Positions 5,641-30,751 of a stretch of DNA of 64,000 nucleotides are shown piece after piece. Every line of letters starts with the position of its first letter. The first letter of the stretch is position 1. Position numbers and translations under genes: made by a program. The notes below the pieces were generated by a model. The model did not search any database, had not been told where the DNA came from, and was given only the letters and a program-made list of their open reading frames with translations. Source of the stretch: an uncultured Candidatus Saccharibacteria bacterium (GTDB lineage Bacteria; Patescibacteriota; Minisyncoccia; JAHISW01; Tagabacteraceae); NCBI GenBank assembly GCA_964601305.1, contig CAZRMW010000003.1, positions 3,116-67,115 on the forward strand. The letters are read 5' to 3'.

Positions 5641-5816
5641 TGGAGTTGAAAAAAAGTTTAACGACAAAAGAGAAGATTAGGAGGAATTTTATTTTTGCAG
5701 CGTTAGCTGCCATAGTGGCGGTTTTTCTGGCAAAAAACGATTTTGCTGCCATTCTTCTTTTAGCAATTGGTATTGTATATGGAGTAATCGTTGCCCAAAA
5801 TTATCTAAAAAAATAA
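5641..5816 (+). CDS. small hydrophobic protein (58 aa)
   Basis: This ORF (MELKKSLTTKEKIRRNFIFAALAAIVAVF...) is not in the ORF track because it is shorter than 60 aa. A hairpin plus T-run terminator follows it at about 5851-5902. Confidence 0.35.
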
Positions 5817-5850
5817 ACACATATTGATTATATCTTGGCCAAATAATTGC

Positions 5851-5902
5851 TCTATTGTAGTCATTTCAGCCCTGATTTGACTACAATAGGGTGTTTTTTG
5901 CT
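5851..5902 (+). terminator. intrinsic terminator (CTCTATTGTAGTCA...TGACTACAATAGG followed by a T-run)
   Basis: A 13-bp stem is followed by GTGTTTTTTGCTGTTTTG. Confidence 0.5.
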
Positions 5903-5928
5903 GTTTTGTGCGGGAAATAACATTCTAA

Positions 5929-5962
5929 TATTCTTAAGAATATTAGAATGTTATTATAAGGT
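5929..5962. repeat. perfect 34-bp palindrome AACATTCTAATATTCTTAAGAATATTAGAATGTT (copy 2, same core ATATTCTTAAGAATAT)
   Basis: It was read directly from the sequence. It lies 840 bp from copy 1, and the two bracket tspO plus the small ORF. Confidence 0.5.
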
Positions 5963-6091
5963 AAAAAGCTGTTGATTTAGCAATTGCGGGTAGGTAAAAT
6001 AAATTTATGTCCGAAAAGAAGATAGAAAAAAATATGAAACCGACTGTTTTTGAGAAAATATTAGAGTTTGCATGAAAACTAAAAAACAAAA

Positions 6092-8148: not shown

Positions 8149-8176
8149 TTGACAAACTTGCTTTTGGGAGTATAAT
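8149..8176 (+). promoter_or_regulatory. consensus sigma70-like promoter (TTGACA-N16-TATAAT)
   Basis: TTGACA is at 8149-8154 and TATAAT at 8171-8176. It drives the structured RNA listed next. Confidence 0.55.
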
Positions 8177-8182
8177 GGAAAA

Positions 8183-8494
8183 CAGGAAGATTGAAAAAGA
8201 AATTTTTTGTTGGTAATACTTTCAAAAGACCCCCGGAAAGGTTTTCTTTTGTGGTATTACTGAGACAAAGACAAATTTTAAGTTTGTTAAGTGATATCTG
8301 GTACCATCCCCGGAAAGGAAAAACCAGAGTTTTATAAAGACCCCCGGAAAGGTAAACCTTTGTAAAGTCATTAGTAGATATGCAATGTGAGAGATTGTAT
8401 ACTAACAAGCAAAAAATTTAGTCTAAAAATCTTCTTTTTCTAGTGGAAAAGGGCAGGTGTCTAATCACAGACTACCTGCCCTGTTTGTTTTTTG
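8183..8494 (+). ncRNA. candidate structured RNA or cis-regulatory leader (~310 nt) ending in an intrinsic terminator, upstream of dut
   Basis: A consensus promoter sits upstream. Three CCCCGGAAAGG-containing hairpins occur at about 8229, 8309 and 8341, each flanked by complementary arms (GGTAATAC/GTATTAC, CAAAAGA/TCTTTTG, CTGGT/ACCAG, AAAGG/CCTTT). The 5-prime and 3-prime ends are complementary (AAATTTTTTG/CAAAAAATTT). The terminator GGGCAGGT...ACCTGCCC plus a T-run is at 8451-8494. No ORF explains the region. Confidence 0.4.
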
Positions 8495-8584
8495 TAAGCA
8501 AGTATGTTATAAATATCTTGGATTTGTTTAGTGTAGATGAAGTTTGAAAATTTAATTTAATCAAACAGATAAGAGGAGGTATTT

Positions 8585-18332: not shown

Positions 18333-19327
18333 AAACGCATTACAACTTTGTATGAAGGCCAGCCAAGTGCTTGAAAATGATGATGAATGGGTGCCGCTTT
18401 AAAAACTTTTTTACCTCTAGTTTTTTTAGAAAAGATTTGAATAATGTCTGACGCAGTTGTGGCGGCTAGCGGAAAAGCAATAATAGGTAAAACCAAAACA
18501 GAGTCTGTAAAAAAGGCAATCACGGTTAGCGTGGCAGTGAGGCCAAGCATACCTGTTTCGCTCATATAAAATCTTGCTGGAGGAATATTAAACCACAAGA
18601 ATGCTAAAATTGCGCCAGTAACAACAGCGCAAAAAGTAGCTAAGTCTATTTGGTTTTGAAAAAATGCTATCCCAGTGTACGCAGCAAAAATAGAAGCCAT
18701 AATACCTCCAGAAAGCCCGTCTAATCCATCAATTACTCCTCCGCTAAATACAGCAAGCATTACTATTATAAAAAATGGAATAAAAAGTAGACCAATATCG
18801 AAATGCCCTACAAAAGGAACAAAAACACCACTAATACCAAGTTTGTAAAAAAACCACCACCCGCCAATAAAACCAATTAGTGCCACAAGTAAAATTCTTT
18901 TGGTTAAACTAAGACCACCACCTATATACTTACCTTTTCCGCGAACCTGTAAAATATCGTCTACGAGACCTATTAAAGAAGCCGAGATAAGAGCAAAGAA
19001 AGGAAGCCAGGTTTGAGATCTGCTTAAGAAATTTAGTTTTTCAGTAAATTCTCCAGGAAAAATTTTAGAAATAAATAAAAACAAAAAACTTACAATAAGT
19101 ACGCTGGCCCAAATTACTATACCACCCATTCGTGGAGTTTTGTTTTCTTCGCCTTTTTGTAATTTACTTACCACTGTGGCGTGTTCTCCACTAAGCGCTT
19201 TTTTGCCTACAGTTTTCTTCCACGCCTTGTATTTATATAAGTAATGCGTCAAAAAAGGTGTGAGCCAAATTGCCACAAAGAAAGTAAAAGCAGATAAGCC
19301 AAATACTTTTAAAATATTTAGTCCCAT
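18275..19327 (-). CDS. mraY: phospho-N-acetylmuramoyl-pentapeptide-transferase
   Basis: The protein has 10 TM segments, the DD motifs and PIHHHFQ. Confidence 0.9.
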   Translation of the reverse strand: MGLNILKVFGLSAFTFFVAIWLTPFLTHYLYKYKAWKKTVGKKALSGEHATVVSKLQKGEENKTPRMGGIVIWASVLIVSFLFLFISKIFPGEFTEKLNFLSRSQTWLPFFALISASLIGLVDDILQVRGKGKYIGGGLSLTKRILLVALIGFIGGWWFFYKLGISGVFVPFVGHFDIGLLFIPFFIIVMLAVFSGGVIDGLDGLSGGIMASIFAAYTGIAFFQNQIDLATFCAVVTGAILAFLWFNIPPARFYMSETGMLGLTATLTVIAFFTDSVLVLPIIAFPLAATTASDIIQIFSKKTRGKKVFKAAPIHHHFQALGWPSYKVVMRFWIIGIVCAIVGMVIILVG

Positions 19328-19758
19328 TATTTTTTAATAAAATTTTCTATATGTTTAATAAACTTGTTAAAATCGTCTAGGTCTTTTTTTATGGTAGACA
19401 AAATTTCTTCTGGTTCAACTTTCCAATATAAGTGTACTAATCTATTTCTATATCCAGCCATGCCCTTTATTTTTTCAGCAAAATTTTCTGGGATTACTTC
19501 GTATTTTCCAAGAGATAAAATAACTTGAGTGTAGTCTTTTTTCTTTCCGTTTGTAGGAATTCTAGCTAAAATATGAGTGCCGATTGTTAAAACAGCTTCC
19601 AAAGCCACTCTCAAATGAAAACATGCCAAAGAATAATTATCTTGGTTTTTTGTAAATTCTTTTGCGCTCATCTTCTCAAATTTTTCTAATTCCAAAATAG
19701 AGGCCCGAATATCTGCTATTCTTTCAATAATTTTTTCTTTGTTTAGATTTTTGATCAT
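19327..19758 (-). CDS. hepT: HepT-like HEPN-domain toxin (DUF86, nucleotidyltransferase-substrate-binding family)
   Basis: The R-x4-H HEPN motif YRNRLVHLY is present. The protein is 143 aa and sits immediately downstream of an MNT gene. Confidence 0.7.
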   Translation of the reverse strand: MIKNLNKEKIIERIADIRASILELEKFEKMSAKEFTKNQDNYSLACFHLRVALEAVLTIGTHILARIPTNGKKKDYTQVILSLGKYEVIPENFAEKIKGMAGYRNRLVHLYWKVEPEEILSTIKKDLDDFNKFIKHIENFIKK

Positions 19759-19775
19759 TTTTATTTTTATATAAA

Positions 19776-20339
19776 TTAAGATTGAGACGAAATAGCTAGT
19801 ACTCCCTTAAAGTACTCGTCTATAAAAAATTTATAGTCTCTATAATGATTAATAATTTTTTCTTTAAAGTTGAATGAATTTTCTAAGTTTTTTGTATAAA
19901 TTAATTCTCCTTCAGAAATGATTCGAAACTGAAAATGAAGAGGCACTTCTTCTACAAAGACTAAGTCAATTTTCTTGCCACCAAAACAAGTTGTTAGTTC
20001 AGAAAAAATATTTCCGTAGATTTTTCCTTTTCTTTCTTTTTTTGGCAAACCTTTTTCAAATATTATACCAATATCAAAATCACTTTCTGGGTGTGTGTCG
20101 CCAGAAATTTGAGAGCCAAAAAAATAAATATCAGATAAGCTGTATTTTTCAGCAATTATCTTTAACTCTTTTTTATTAAATTTTATTGCCATACCTACAT
20201 TATGCCCTAAATTAAAAAAATTTAAAACACAAAAAACCTTGACATTTGAATATTTTTGTGATAATTTTTGAAACAGAAATTTATATAGATTTAAAATGTT
20301 AAAAATATTGAAGGAGGTGCTAAGTGGCTGAAGAAACAA
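19776..20339 (-). CDS. mntA: MntA-like minimal nucleotidyltransferase antitoxin; probable true start at the internal ATG ~20192 (MAIKFNKKEL...)
   Basis: The GS-x9-D-x-D motif YFFGSQISGDTHPESDFDIGI is present. The upstream part of the long ORF overlaps a plus-strand promoter. Confidence 0.7.
   Translation of the reverse strand: MFLQPLSTSFNIFNILNLYKFLFQKLSQKYSNVKVFCVLNFFNLGHNVGMAIKFNKKELKIIAEKYSLSDIYFFGSQISGDTHPESDFDIGIIFEKGLPKKERKGKIYGNIFSELTTCFGGKKIDLVFVEEVPLHFQFRIISEGELIYTKNLENSFNFKEKIINHYRDYKFFIDEYFKGVLAISSQS
20239..20266 (+). promoter_or_regulatory. sigma70-like promoter for the 20324 gene (TTGACA-N16-ATAATT; the alternative GATAAT gives N15)
   Basis: TTGACA is at 20239-20244. It is followed by a GGAGGT SD and a GTG start. 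Confidence 0.45.
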
Positions 20340-22367: not shown

Positions 22368-23102
22368 TTACTCGTTATTTGTTACTTTACTAATATGTAT
22401 TTCTCCAAAATCTTCCCCTTGTTTTACAATTATAAATCCCCTTTTGGTTAATTCAAGAAGAGCTAAAAAACTCACAACAAGATCTACTTTTTGGCACTCT
22501 TTGTTTTTGTTGTGTGTATCAGAAAAGCACAGCGAAACTTTATCTTCGATTCTCTTTATAAGACTATCTATTTTTTGTTCCAAACTTATAGTCTTTTTAA
22601 CTTTTACTTCTGGTAATTTTGGTTTTGGTGGTGGAATTTTTCCCAGAGCGTTTTGTAAAGCAATTTCTAAATTTGTTTGAGACAAATCTTTCGGCTTAAT
22701 TTGTAATTGATCTAATGGTAAAATATTTTCTATTTGATAAAAAGAAGGTCTGCTAAATATTACATTTTTACCAAAAATTTTTTCGAGATCTTTTGAAATA
22801 TTTCTAAATTTTTTGTAAAGTTTTAATTTTTCTTCCAAGTCTTCTATTTCTGTCTCTTCTTCGTCTGTAAGTTTTAAAGATGGCATTAAAGAGCGGGATT
22901 TTATGAGCATAAGAGTTGCTGCTACAACGACAAAAGAAGCAACCTCTTCTGTGGGAAACTGCTCTATTTTTTTTATGTAGTCTAAGTATTGATCTGCAAT
23001 TTCTGAAAGTGAAAGTTCGTTTATAGAGAGCTTTTTCTTGTCTATAAGATCTACAAGCACTTCAAACGGCCCATTAAATTTTTCAGTCTGTATATTATAC
23101 AT
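22368..23102 (-). CDS. scpA: segregation and condensation protein A
   Basis: The N-terminus FNGPFEVLVDLIDKKKLSINELSLSEIADQYLDYI is typical of ScpA. Confidence 0.85.
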   Translation of the reverse strand: MYNIQTEKFNGPFEVLVDLIDKKKLSINELSLSEIADQYLDYIKKIEQFPTEEVASFVVVAATLMLIKSRSLMPSLKLTDEEETEIEDLEEKLKLYKKFRNISKDLEKIFGKNVIFSRPSFYQIENILPLDQLQIKPKDLSQTNLEIALQNALGKIPPPKPKLPEVKVKKTISLEQKIDSLIKRIEDKVSLCFSDTHNKNKECQKVDLVVSFLALLELTKRGFIIVKQGEDFGEIHISKVTNNE

Positions 23103-23121
23103 ATGCTCATTATAGCAGAAA

Positions 23122-23348
23122 ATAAAAAATCCCCGGAGTATTTAGTTATACCCCGAGGAATGTCCTTCAACTTCTCCGCAAGCAGCGGACACATACCGCT
23201 TGGGAAAATCCCTGTATTTGAATCTTGTCCGGGCCGGGAAGTCGCCTTGGACAGAAAGTGCTGAAACTGCCGGAATCGAACCGGTATCCCCTCCAAAACA
23301 CAGAGGTCTCTTGCCCATTAAGAAATTCATCCTCTCAATCACTTTCTA
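23122..23348 (-). ncRNA. candidate GC-rich structured RNA (~225 nt) immediately upstream of scpA; class unknown (independent sRNA or terminator-containing leader)
   Basis: A perfect-consensus promoter (TTGACA-N16-TATAAT) lies on the minus strand at 23355-23382. An intrinsic terminator (GGGGUAU...AUACUCC then GGGGAUUUUUUAUUUU) ends ~20 nt before the scpA ATG. GC content is about 50% against a ~32% background. It contains the tRNA T-arm-like CCGGUUCGAUUCCGG. Only spurious overlapping ORFs cover it. Confidence 0.45.
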
Positions 23349-23354
23349 CTCTCT

Positions 23355-23382
23355 ATTATACACATACAAAATATTTTGTCAA
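23355..23382 (-). promoter_or_regulatory. consensus sigma70 promoter (TTGACA-N16-TATAAT) on the minus strand
   Basis: On the plus strand, tgtcaa is at 23377-23382 and attata at 23355-23360. Confidence 0.55.
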
Positions 23383-23780
23383 CCCCTCACCTTTGCAAAG
23401 TTTTTATTCATAAAAAATACTATCAAAGGTGAGGGGTCAAGAGGTGAAATTTGAGAGCAAATTGGGAAATAAAAGTGGAACCTATTTAACGCGATAGCAG
23501 TGGATAGGTTCCATTGACAGAATTTTAAAGAAATGTTATCCATAAAACTATGGAAAATTTAATTATGAAATATAGAACAAATATTACCAAAGGTCTTAAT
23601 GGCTGGGATATTTCTGTGTGCGGAAATATGCATTTCGTGCCAGAAAATCAATATATTGGGCAAAACAGGTTAGAAACTTGAGTTAACAAACAAACTAAGT
23701 ATTTAAGGTGTCTTGCTCAACAGAGTAAGGCATTTTTAGATTTTAAGGTCTAAAAAAGTTCTTTAACAATAAAATAAATA

Positions 23781-23826
23781 AACCCTATCTGAGGGAGATC
23801 GGATCTCCCTCAGATACAAAAGGAGG
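23781..23826 (+). promoter_or_regulatory. repeat cassette copy 1: AAACCCTATCTGAGGGAGATCGGATCTCCCTCAGATAcAAAAGGAGG (31-bp perfect palindrome plus SD) directly upstream of the MFS transporter gene
   Basis: The identical 45-nt sequence recurs at 25034-25080, with one mismatch just before the SD. Confidence 0.55.
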
Positions 23827-23833
23827 CTTAAGA

Positions 23834-25015
23834 ATGGGGCGTGAAGATATGAAAAGAAATATATTACTGTATAAATGGTATGCAGTTTTGAGTGAACCGG
23901 TTTTTTGGGGACCAACCATTATTCTCTTTATACAAAATGCTGGGAAAATGAGTTTGCCAGAAATCTATTTGATGGAAGCAATTGTGTTGGGATTTATGGT
24001 CTTGTTAGAAATACCATCAGGAGCCTTAGCAGATATTGTTGGAAGAAAGAAAACAATTCTTACCGGTCAGTTTTTTGTTTTAATAAGTGTGATACTTTTA
24101 GCATTTATTAATTCATCAACAGATGTTTGGATTTCTAATTTTGTCTGCATGATAGGAATGGTGTGTCGTTCTGGAGCAGATTCTGCACTTCTGTATGACT
24201 CACTAAAAGAAATTGGCAGAGAGATTGATTATCAAGAAATACAAGGCAATGCTTTGGGAAATAAGTTGTTAGCTTATGCTTTTTGTTCTTTGGTGGTTGG
24301 ATTTCTTTCAGAGATAGACTTGAGACTACCGTTTTTTCTTGCCATCCCTTGGGTAGCCACTTCTTGTTTTTTAATTTTCTGTTTTAAAGAACCGGTTTAT
24401 ACTCAAAAATTTAGTTTTAAAAAACAAGCAGACTTAATGAAAACAAGTATAAGGTTTGTTTTAAACAGTAGGCCTGTTAAGTGGATCATTATTTTTGTAG
24501 TTTTAATATCTGTTTCTTCACAGATTTGGTTTTATAGCTATAATCTATATTTCGAACTAGTAAATCTTGGATTAAGGTATTACGGAATTATTTTTTTCTT
24601 ATTAAATATCATTGCTTGTTTTTTTAGTCGCAATGCATATAAAATAGAAAAAAAATTTAACGAACAACTATGTATTGTTAGCATGATTTTGCTTATAGGG
24701 ATCCCTGTTTTGTTGATGGGATTGATTGTTATAAAAGAGATAGTTATTTTGGTGTTGCTACAAAATGTAGTCCGTGGTTTTATGGAGCCATTTTGGGGAG
24801 GATTTTTAAACAAACATATAGATACTGAAAACAGGGCGACTGTTATATCAATTAAGTCAGCTTTTGGTGGTTTTGTAGCTATCGTTTCTTATTCTTTGTT
24901 TGGATTTATTTTAGAAATTTGGACATTAACCTTTTGTTTACAAGCTCTCGGAATAACGGTGTTGTTTTTTGGAGTAATTATGGTTGTGTGGTATAGAAAA
25001 ATTTTCAAACCCTAA
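23834..25015 (+). CDS. MFS-type transporter
   Basis: The protein has ~12 predicted TM helices and an MFS-like D-R/K motif region (GALADIVGRKK). Confidence 0.7.
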   Translation: MGREDMKRNILLYKWYAVLSEPVFWGPTIILFIQNAGKMSLPEIYLMEAIVLGFMVLLEIPSGALADIVGRKKTILTGQFFVLISVILLAFINSSTDVWISNFVCMIGMVCRSGADSALLYDSLKEIGREIDYQEIQGNALGNKLLAYAFCSLVVGFLSEIDLRLPFFLAIPWVATSCFLIFCFKEPVYTQKFSFKKQADLMKTSIRFVLNSRPVKWIIIFVVLISVSSQIWFYSYNLYFELVNLGLRYYGIIFFLLNIIACFFSRNAYKIEKKFNEQLCIVSMILLIGIPVLLMGLIVIKEIVILVLLQNVVRGFMEPFWGGFLNKHIDTENRATVISIKSAFGGFVAIVSYSLFGFILEIWTLTFCLQALGITVLFFGVIMVVWYRKIFKP

Positions 25016-25033
25016 ACCCAAACTTAACTCAAA

Positions 25034-25080
25034 AAACCCTATCTGAGGGAGATCGGATCTCCCTCAGATATAAAAGGAGG
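25034..25080 (+). promoter_or_regulatory. repeat cassette copy 2 (palindrome TATCTGAGGGAGATCGGATCTCCCTCAGATA plus AAAAGGAGG SD) directly upstream of the GNAT gene
   Basis: It is an exact repeat of the 23781-23826 element. Confidence 0.55.
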
Positions 25081-25084
25081 AGAA

Positions 25085-25672
25085 ATGGAAACGAAAAAAC
25101 AAAGAATAATTTTTTTGGAAGGAAAGAAGGTTGTTTTAAGACCGCTAAACAAAAAAACAGATTTGGAAAATGTTACGAAATGGATAAATGACCGAGAAGT
25201 TGTGCAATATTTGCAAGCATTTTTACCAAAAACTTTCCAAGAAGAGAAAGAGTGGCTTAGCAGAAAAAACGATGAAAAAAATATTGTTTTAGCTATAGAA
25301 ACAACCAAGGGAATTCATATTGGAAGCCTGGGTCTACATAACATTGATTCAATACATAGAGTTGTTACGTTTGGAATTATGATAGGAGAAAAAGAGTATT
25401 GGGGAAAAAGATATGGTACAGAGGCCCTGATGCTACTTCTTGAATATGCATTTAACACTTTGAATTTAAGAAAAGTTTGTTTAGATGTGTTTGCTTTCAA
25501 TAACCGCGCAAAAAAAGTCTATGAAAAATGTGGATTTAAAAAAGAAGGTGTCATGAAAGAACACCATTATGTAAACGGTAAATACATAGATGTTGTTTTT
25601 ATGGCAGTTTTTAAAAAAGACTTTCTCAAAATCTGGGAGAAATATTTAACTAGTGAGGTTGAACCTCGCTAG
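25085..25672 (+). CDS. GNAT-family N-acetyltransferase (RimJ/RimL-like)
   Basis: The N-terminal motif RIIFLEGKKVVLRPL ... DLENVTKWINDREVVQYL is RimJ/L-like. An acetyl-CoA binding region is present. Confidence 0.8.
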   Translation: METKKQRIIFLEGKKVVLRPLNKKTDLENVTKWINDREVVQYLQAFLPKTFQEEKEWLSRKNDEKNIVLAIETTKGIHIGSLGLHNIDSIHRVVTFGIMIGEKEYWGKRYGTEALMLLLEYAFNTLNLRKVCLDVFAFNNRAKKVYEKCGFKKEGVMKEHHYVNGKYIDVVFMAVFKKDFLKIWEKYLTSEVEPR

Positions 25673-25674
25673 TT
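25648..25674. repeat. 27-nt exact repeat AACTAGTGAGGTTGAACCTCGCTAGTT (copy 1, supplies the last 8 codons and stop of the GNAT gene)
   Basis: An identical copy lies at 56716-56742 in an intergenic region. It is an imperfect palindrome and can form a hairpin. Confidence 0.6.
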
Positions 25675-25687
25675 ATTGAAAAAATAA

Positions 25688-25754
25688 AAGGTACAAAGTT
25701 AAGCGACCCCGCCTAAGGCGGACAAGCGCATATTTTGTACCTTTTTTTATTTTG
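25688..25754 (+). terminator. intrinsic terminator (AAAGGTACAAA...TTTGTACCTTT followed by a T-run, with an inner CCGCCTAAGGCGG hairpin)
   Basis: It was read directly from the sequence. Confidence 0.55.
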
Positions 25755-25916
25755 TCTGTAAATTTTTACGTTAACGTTGGAATTTAAAACTTCGTTTTAT
25801 TTTTATGTTTTTATCTACAAAAATCACACAACTGTGGTTATCGCCAGTTATAGGTGATTTTATTTTACAAGCAAAAAACTTTATAAAGCTTCTTTTTTGT
25901 GGTTCGAGAGTTTTGT

Positions 25917-30678: not shown

Positions 30679-30751
30679 GCCCCGTTAGCTCAGCTGGTAG
30701 AGCAGCTCCCTTTTAAGGAGACGGTCGGGGGTTCGAATCCCTCACGGGGTA
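30679..30751 (+). tRNA. tRNA-Lys (anticodon UUU)
   Basis: A hand-folded cloverleaf gives acceptor GCCCCGT/ACGGGGT, D-arm GCTC/GAGC, anticodon stem GCTCC/GGAGA with loop CTTTTAA (U33, A37), T-arm GGGGG-TTCGAAT-CCCTC and discriminator A. No CCA is encoded. Confidence 0.85.

Follow-up and report, generated by a model that had tools for sequence, protein, structure and literature searches.

A probable small RNA gene carrying a tRNA-like module at its 5′ end in the aspS–scpA gap of a Patescibacteria genome

Directly upstream of scpA, on the minus strand of a 64-kb stretch of Patescibacteria DNA (hereafter the window), lies a GC-rich region (23122-23382) that carries promoter and terminator signals. 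The question raised by this locus is whether the region is a free-standing small RNA (sRNA) gene, a leader of scpAB, a small protein gene, a divergent housekeeping RNA or the remains of a tRNA. To our knowledge, no small RNA of Patescibacteria (CPR) has been described experimentally, and a literature search returned nothing relevant on the subject. The evidence presented here suggests that the small RNA is probably real, independently transcribed, lineage-restricted and tRNA-like.

A predicted non-coding transcription unit

Read 5′ to 3′ from 23382 on the minus strand, the region consists of TTGACA, a 16-nt spacer, TATAAT, a body of ~190 nt, a hairpin and a T-run, followed by the scpA box and the ATG (Table 1). 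A pattern scan recovers the sigma-70 promoter TTGACA-N16-TATAAT of the preliminary description at 23382..23355, with 12 of 12 consensus positions matched. Perfect sites of the type TTGACA-N16-18-TATAAT occur three times in the window, against 0.07 expected from shuffled sequences. From standard sigma-70 spacing, transcription would start ~6-8 nt past TATAAT, near 23347-23350.

The hairpin and U-run that had been placed ~20 nt before the scpA start are also found. The hairpin (23159..23130) has the sequence UCCUCGGGGUAU-AACUAA-AUACUCCGGGGA, with six G-C pairs among the 12 bp of its stem and an energy of -18.6 kcal/mol, and is followed by the run TTTTTTATTTT. The T-run ends ~17-20 nt before the scpA ATG at 23102. 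The terminator is strong and probably constitutive.

Table 1. Features of the RNA gene, of scpA and of comparable elements (window positions, except for the last row, which refers to the loci of relatives)
Feature	Position	Strand	Description
Perfect 14-bp inverted repeat ACCCCTCACCTTTG / CAAAGGTGAGGGGT	23382..23437	both	arms 28 nt apart; unique in the window
-35 hexamer TTGACA	23377..23382	minus	part of the 12/12 promoter, 16-nt spacer
-10 hexamer TATAAT	23355..23360	minus	consensus promoter
Predicted primary transcript, ~225 nt	23122..23348	minus	GC-rich, non-coding; GC peak, no coding or family match
5′ domain	23253..23347	minus	MFE fold: long closing helix around three hairpins; pair probabilities 0.33-0.9
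Degenerate tRNA-like cloverleaf, tRNA-Asn(GTT)-like	23262..23334	minus	ARAGORN at 95% of the default threshold
T-arm look-alike CCGG-UUCGAUU-CCGG	23270..23284	minus	highest pairing probability of any helix in the fold (mean 0.90)
3′ domain	23162..23252	minus	predicted Y-shaped three-way junction; z -1.71; no family match
Intrinsic terminator	23119..23159	minus	12-bp stem, 6-nt loop, then TTTTTTATTTT; pair probability 0.97
Extended -10 box of scpA, TGCTATAAT	box 23117-23109, ATG 23102-23100	minus	6 nt between box and ATG; outside the RNA
Gene starts with an extended -10 box	e.g. 5577, 10764, 23102, 29974, 43060, 56674	minus	TGnTAnAAT 6-8 nt upstream
Small ORF and hairpin before MFS genes of relatives	L014 ~5720-5990; L016 ~5760-5990; L018 ~5760-5990		

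The sequence that follows the promoter, ~225 nt in length, had been described as GC-rich, and with 48-49% GC in a window of 34% GC it clearly is. The GC content is 47.6% across 23122-23354 and 49.2% in the body (23160-23348), compared with 34.4% for the whole window and 33.3% for the remainder of the same intergenic region. When GC is averaged over 120 nt, the maximum of the whole window (0.558 vs 0.344 overall) is located at 23115-23357. The highest GC peak of the window exactly fills the space from promoter to terminator.

The ORFs that cover the region measure 44-84 aa, occur on both strands and all overlap one another. The earlier view that they are spurious is borne out: GC at their three codon positions is ~0.5/0.5/0.5, against ~0.45/0.30/0.27 in the real genes of the window, the six reading frames across the body are all comparably open, and none of the ORFs matches Pfam. 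Protein searches were further used as a means of catching spurious ORFs called on homologous RNAs. Against 5.8 billion proteins, a concatenated six-frame query of the region gave no match with E <= 10, and a HMMER/phmmer pass with the longest frame over 1.84 billion representatives gave only chance matches (SprB-like and ankyrin repeat proteins). Thus, from the flat GC at the three codon positions and the lack of protein relatives, the stretch is non-coding.

The same data bear on the least likely of the readings that we weighed, in which a small protein of 62-66 aa is encoded at 23342/23330..23142 (minus) by a gene acquired from a GC-richer donor. This frame is indeed open across the entire body, with its stop codon inside the terminator loop. 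However, it shares this openness with the five other frames, its codon-position GC is flat (0.51/0.49/0.49), it lacks a usable Shine-Dalgarno spacing, and no start codon is present at the predicted 5′ end. It has no Pfam match, and neither protein collection contains a relative of it beyond the chance repeat-protein matches.

The region resembles free-standing sRNA genes, which combine a sigma-70 promoter, a non-coding body of ~200 nt and a terminator hairpin with a U-tail. A promoter of its own, a non-coding body and an intrinsic terminator are all found here. It differs from the established genes of this type in that no target, chaperone or conservation is known for it.

The 14-bp inverted repeat listed in Table 1 touches the -35 hexamer of the RNA and lies between the divergent promoters of the RNA and of the MFS leader described below. 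It is a possible operator or regulator binding site, and its assignment to the RNA gene is uncertain.

Elsewhere in the window, a second perfect TTGACA-N16-TATAAT promoter (8149-8176, plus strand) opens a non-coding stretch of ~300 nt (8149-8500) that ends in a terminator-like hairpin (~8452-8496). This stretch folds far better than its shuffles (z -5.7) and contains three copies of CCCC(C)GGAAAGG, near 8229, 8310 and 8341, each apparently forming the tip of an AT-rich hairpin. Rfam gives no match for it, and ARAGORN at 95% of its default threshold places an unconvincing 'tRNA-Stop' inside it. In its predicted fold, the stretch looks like a candidate sRNA of the multi-hairpin, protein-sponge type.

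Independence from scpA and genomic setting

A terminator on the same strand, located immediately upstream of a gene, is a layout shared with attenuation leaders and riboswitches, and the preliminary description had proposed a terminator/antiterminator leader regulating scpAB as one option. As a cis-acting 5′ leader or attenuator, the region would allow scpA to be reached only when the terminator is bypassed. The start of scpA argues against this. The N-terminus of ScpA (MY...) is invariant, which identifies the ATG at 23102 as the start codon. It has no Shine-Dalgarno sequence upstream and carries its own box TGCTATAAT, 6 nt before the conserved ATG, suggesting that the scpA mRNA is leaderless and starts downstream of the terminator. 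With this box so near the start and no Shine-Dalgarno sequence, the internal scpA AUG of a read-through transcript would be poorly translated. In the relative L010, a terminator, TGCTATAAT, 6 nt and the ATG likewise precede scpA, and in the relative L009 TGATATACT is found 8 nt before the scpA ATG.

Furthermore, no antiterminator was found among the upstream transcript segments; the best pairing that competes with the 5′ arm of the terminator is discontinuous and reaches -10.8 kcal/mol, against -18.6 kcal/mol for the terminator itself. The element is missing upstream of scpA in six relatives, and no riboswitch, T-box or leader family of Rfam matches the region. In contrast to attenuation leaders and riboswitches, it thus combines the lack of an alternative pairing and of a conserved downstream gene with a leaderless-type promoter for scpA. 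The proposal of an scpAB leader is largely refuted, and we regard it as hardly credible. The RNA is independent of scpA.

Many gene starts of the window lack a Shine-Dalgarno sequence and show a TGnTAnAAT box 6-8 nt ahead of the ATG; other genes have a strong AGGAGG. By these start signals, leaderless mRNAs appear to be frequent in this organism.

Judged by ScpA, the MFS exporter and adjacent genes, the window belongs to the Parcubacteria/Paceibacteria group of Patescibacteria. The nearest relatives of ScpA are only 62-65% identical. In the six loci compared (L009, L010, L012/13, L315, L316 and L317), the gene order is histidine kinase, aspS, scpA, scpB and Peptidase_S11 (D-Ala-D-Ala carboxypeptidase-type); scpA either adjoins aspS or follows it after intervening small ORFs, and the RNA element is present in none (0/6). 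In the window, the gap between aspS and scpA (23103-25916) contains plus-strand genes for a GNAT acetyltransferase and an MFS exporter, a conserved small ORF and hairpin before the MFS gene, and the RNA on the minus strand. This comparison points to a lineage-specific insertion into a putative ancestral layout in which aspS was directly followed by scpA-scpB. The RNA region is 100% identical in seven contigs of the same species that come from different samples, which says little, since the flanking DNA is also about 99.95-100% identical.

The GNAT protein most resembles the acetyltransferases SpeG and AAC(6'); its match to RimL reaches only E about 1e-3. We considered a microcin-C-type immunity function (microcin C being an AspRS inhibitor) for the GNAT/MFS pair, tied to a tRNA-Asn mimic, and rejected it in view of this SpeG/AAC(6')-like affiliation. 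The MFS gene is preceded by a 43-aa ORF, which has a TTGACA -35 hexamer of its own and is followed by a hairpin (23550-23736, plus). In three other Patescibacteria, MFS homologues are also preceded by Asn-rich small ORFs (15-19% Asn) and a terminator hairpin (Table 1). The arrangement looks like a leader-peptide attenuator of the efflux gene, judging from its sequence. One contig of the same species (L007) lacks 27 bp relative to the window (23556-23582) in the region of the 43-aa leader ORF, a strain polymorphism.

A 55-nt direct repeat, 93% identical between its copies (23772-23826 and 25026-25080), holds the palindrome TATCTGAGGGAGATC-G-GATCTCCCTCAGATA, with 15-bp arms, immediately before the AAAAGGAGG ribosome-binding sites of the MFS and GNAT genes. 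We predict that it is a shared operator or 5′-UTR hairpin. About 3 kb downstream of the RNA, past scpAB and the Peptidase_S11 gene, the window encodes a HepT-like/nucleotidyltransferase (HEPN-MNT) toxin-antitoxin pair (19327-20339, minus). In the locus L009 (480-1030), partial duplicated 5′ pieces of tRNA-Lys flank the intact gene on both sides, together with a very GC-rich stretch, up to 64% GC, that has no assignment. These may be signs of integration events at tRNA-Lys.

Fold of the RNA and its tRNA-like module

The full transcript folds with z = -2.8 relative to shuffled sequences, and it does so because of the terminator. Once the terminator is removed, the body has z = -0.86 and is equalled in folding by 38 of 200 shuffles, which counts against the sRNA reading. 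Folding lends weak support to the earlier label 'structured'.

In the minimum free energy (MFE) fold, the transcript forms two domains side by side, with its ends unpaired with each other. The closing helix of the 5′ domain pairs AGAAAGUG.UUGAGA with UUUCAG.CACUUUCU; the z-score of this domain is only -0.92, which also counts against the sRNA reading. By eye, the GUGUUU loop is complementary over 6 bp to the CAAAUAC loop of the 3′ domain; this match was discarded, as it is not significant when the 15 loop pairs are allowed for.

With default settings, ARAGORN finds a single tRNA-Lys in the window, at 30679, and no tRNA or tmRNA in the RNA region. At 95% of the default threshold it makes two additional calls in the 64 kb, one unconvincing and the other located in the 5′ domain (23334..23262, minus). 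A cloverleaf is called at this lowered threshold in only 1 of 1000 shuffles of the region. The tRNA-likeness of the module is therefore above chance. In agreement with this, the T-arm-like string reported in the preliminary description, CCGGTTCGATTCCGG at 23284-23270 on the minus strand, is present and holds up as part of this sub-threshold cloverleaf; the exact T-loop 11-mer, GGTTCGATTCC, occurs once in the window.

The cloverleaf drawing comprises 73 nt. Its T-loop is canonical, its D-like loop contains GG, and its variable region has 5 nt. An anticodon-like arm consists of a 5-bp stem and the 7-nt loop GUGUUUU, which carries GUU. In standard tRNA numbering, G18G19-like residues, U33 and the T-loop are present, whereas position 8 is A and not U, A14 is absent, position 37 is U and not a purine, position 32 is G, and nucleotide 26 is missing. 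The T stem is 4 bp long, and the acceptor stem is interrupted by an A·G mismatch. The ARAGORN drawing also contains the wobbles G3·U70/G4·U69 and A73.

The cloverleaf has an energy of -11.3 kcal/mol, compared with -15.6 kcal/mol for the MFE fold of the same 73 nt, a further point against the sRNA reading. It is incompatible with the MFE closing helix; the MFE fold keeps the same three hairpins and encloses them in a longer helix. By modelling, the cloverleaf and the long-helix fold cannot be told apart.

No match to the Rfam tRNA model RF00005 is obtained at E <= 10 (gathering score 29 bits), and any Rfam tRNA match must fall below the 8.2-bit clan match that was retained, which again counts against the sRNA reading. 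This low score and the missing core features of tRNA indicate that the cloverleaf is not a working elongator tRNA. The module is tRNA-derived or tRNA-mimicking. Like elongator tRNA-Asn (GUU), it is drawn as a 73-nt cloverleaf whose 7-nt loop contains GUU, with a variable region of 5 nt and a TΨC-type loop. It differs from this tRNA in scoring below the ARAGORN default and below 8.2 bits in Rfam, and in the ~100 nt of additional GC-rich RNA between the module and the terminator. Like the genuine tRNA-Lys gene of this genome, the candidate RNA has no encoded CCA.

Several tRNA-like sRNAs and mimics (YrlA, the tRNA-like domain of tmRNA, mascRNA and the t-elements of plant mitochondria) share with the candidate a canonical T-arm (GGUUCGAUUCC in the candidate), the GG of a D-like loop at tRNA-like spacing, a closing acceptor-like helix and the placement of the module within a longer non-coding transcript. 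YrlA and tmRNA are not known to have a full anticodon-like arm, whereas the candidate RNA does. In addition, its tRNA-like part is 5′-terminal and followed by a separate domain, and is not built from the two ends of the RNA.

The degenerate state of the cloverleaf (no U8, A14, purine 37 or nucleotide 26, and a T stem of 4 bp) would also be expected of a decaying relic: a former tRNA-Asn-like gene, or a tRNA-derived att-site remnant of the MFS/GNAT insertion, from whose old promoter transcription may persist with no function of its own. The aspS–scpA junction is a variable insertion spot among the relatives, the partial tRNA-Lys copies of L009 point to tRNA-targeted rearrangements elsewhere in the locus in this lineage, no homologues are found, and the folding is unexceptional, all of which fits a relic. 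On the other hand, the promoter is still perfect at 12/12 and the terminator intact, and neutral decay should erode ~49% GC maintained across ~190 nt in a 34% GC genome. Nor does a relic account for the ~90-nt GC-rich 3′ domain, in which ARAGORN detects nothing tRNA-like on that strand, whatever the threshold; the annotation shows no integrase in the vicinity, and no direct repeat that encloses the whole insertion is seen in 22900-25400. We consider a relic unlikely.

Known RNA families, homologues and a proposed function

Known families of RNA may be harder to detect in divergent uncultivated lineages, and a housekeeping RNA (6S, SRP, a piece of tmRNA, RNase P or Y RNA) could in principle be too divergent for Rfam. 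The strong, constitutive-type promoter and a GC-richness like that of stable RNAs would fit such an identity. Rfam 15 cmscan at gathering thresholds, run on the 64 kb, gives no match in the RNA region on either strand; no housekeeping RNA on the plus strand, which would have overturned the preliminary description, was thus detected. Relaxing the limit to E <= 10 for segments of 801 and 235 nt yields, on both strands, only terminator-driven alignments and T-arm-only fragments. Among the latter are the tiny partial matches to tmRNA_permuted and cyano_tmRNA, 13-15 nt long and 8-9.5 bits, which cover the T-arm alone and are a further point for a housekeeping RNA.

Individual families fare no better. 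A tmRNA, standard or permuted, was rejected, as ARAGORN -m reports none even at a 70% threshold and no tag reading frame is present. 6S RNA was likewise dismissed: the MFE fold consists of two adjacent domains and not of a 6S-type rod, its ends are unpaired, and Rfam gives no 6S match. SRP RNA (4.5S or large) has no Rfam match on either strand at E <= 10. The SRP-like string noted earlier on the opposite strand does exist, as GGGAAGTCGCC at 23236-23246 (plus), within the 3′ domain, but the resemblance to SRP RNA is not upheld, GGGAAGUCGCC being a mere short string likeness with no SRP model match. At ~225 nt, the transcript is too short for RNase P RNA.

The bacterial Y RNA YrlA was also rejected, with no Rfam match and no TROVE gene within about +/-3.7 kb. 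The genes called in this interval are aspS, those for GNAT, MFS, ScpA, ScpB and Peptidase_S11 (D-Ala-D-Ala carboxypeptidase-type), and the HEPN/MNT pair; Ro/Rsr, RtcB and SmpB are not among them. A housekeeping RNA would moreover be expected in the relatives, and none is seen in ~170 kb of their DNA. Overall, a divergent housekeeping RNA is highly improbable. The other option of the preliminary description, an unclassified small RNA, agrees with what we observe: promoter, terminator, non-coding character and no Rfam, ARAGORN (at its default) or Pfam assignment on either strand.

Searches for homologues of the RNA were negative in each collection examined. Neither nhmmer nor blastn detects one in the loci of the six ScpA and three MFS relatives, and a ScpA-based scan of GTDB genomes returned one irrelevant locus. 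In phage and plasmid records, blastn recovers nothing but fragments that resemble promoters or tRNA T-arms. Exact-block scans of viral contigs with a T-arm 17-mer and a 15-mer of the 3′ domain yield only tRNAs and chance matches, and the matches of a D-loop plus T-loop pattern are real tRNAs and prophage att sites. A three-loop pattern (D-like, GUGUUUU, T-loop) gives 0 viral matches and 10 chance matches in metagenome contigs. The absence of homologues is weakly established, since the scan of GTDB genomes was made with ScpA and the metagenome contig collection did not return even this species. No DNA or protein search having produced a homologue, the RNA shows no covariation, nor any sign of selection beyond one species, a further point against the sRNA reading. 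Candidate mRNA targets in the window, by duplex energy and exact complementarity, are at chance level only.

On balance, we favour with moderate confidence an independently transcribed, lineage-restricted sRNA gene composed of a tRNA-like 5′ module, a second domain and a constitutive terminator. We infer that such a gene is expressed as an RNA of ~225 nt, transcribed from the consensus sigma-70 promoter and ended by the strong intrinsic terminator. It would have arrived in the lineage-specific aspS–scpA insertion, together with the leader-regulated MFS exporter and the GNAT gene on the other strand, and the separate expression of scpA would rely on its own TGCTATAAT box, which lies immediately past the terminator and would give a leaderless mRNA.

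The tRNA-derived or tRNA-mimicking module would make up the first third of the RNA. The most likely partners of this module would be proteins that act on tRNAs, for instance RNase P, RNase Z, TruB or the CCA-adding enzyme, which might recognise it. Such recognition could stabilise and process the transcript, giving a tRNA-like piece and a terminator-bearing 3′ sRNA. Alternatively, the RNA may act as a protein-binding decoy. Any such processing, and any function in trans, is inferred.

A more far-reaching proposal is that the RNA is the first example of a new class of tRNA-mimic regulatory RNA in Patescibacteria, with a tRNA-Asn-like cloverleaf and a 3′ effector domain, which we consider quite improbable. 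In this view, tRNA enzymes such as RNase P, AspRS-ND, AlaRS or TruB would process or bind the RNA, and it could have a functional tie to aspS or to the leader-controlled exporter/acetyltransferase cassette.

The candidate RNA is a prediction from a single species, and its importance is limited accordingly. If expressed, it would be a strongly promoted, clonable candidate with which to study tRNA mimicry or regulation by RNA in these reduced bacteria that depend on hosts. In addition, the locus appears to show how an ancestral aspS-scpAB operon was split by an insertion, with scpA then placed under a leaderless-type promoter.
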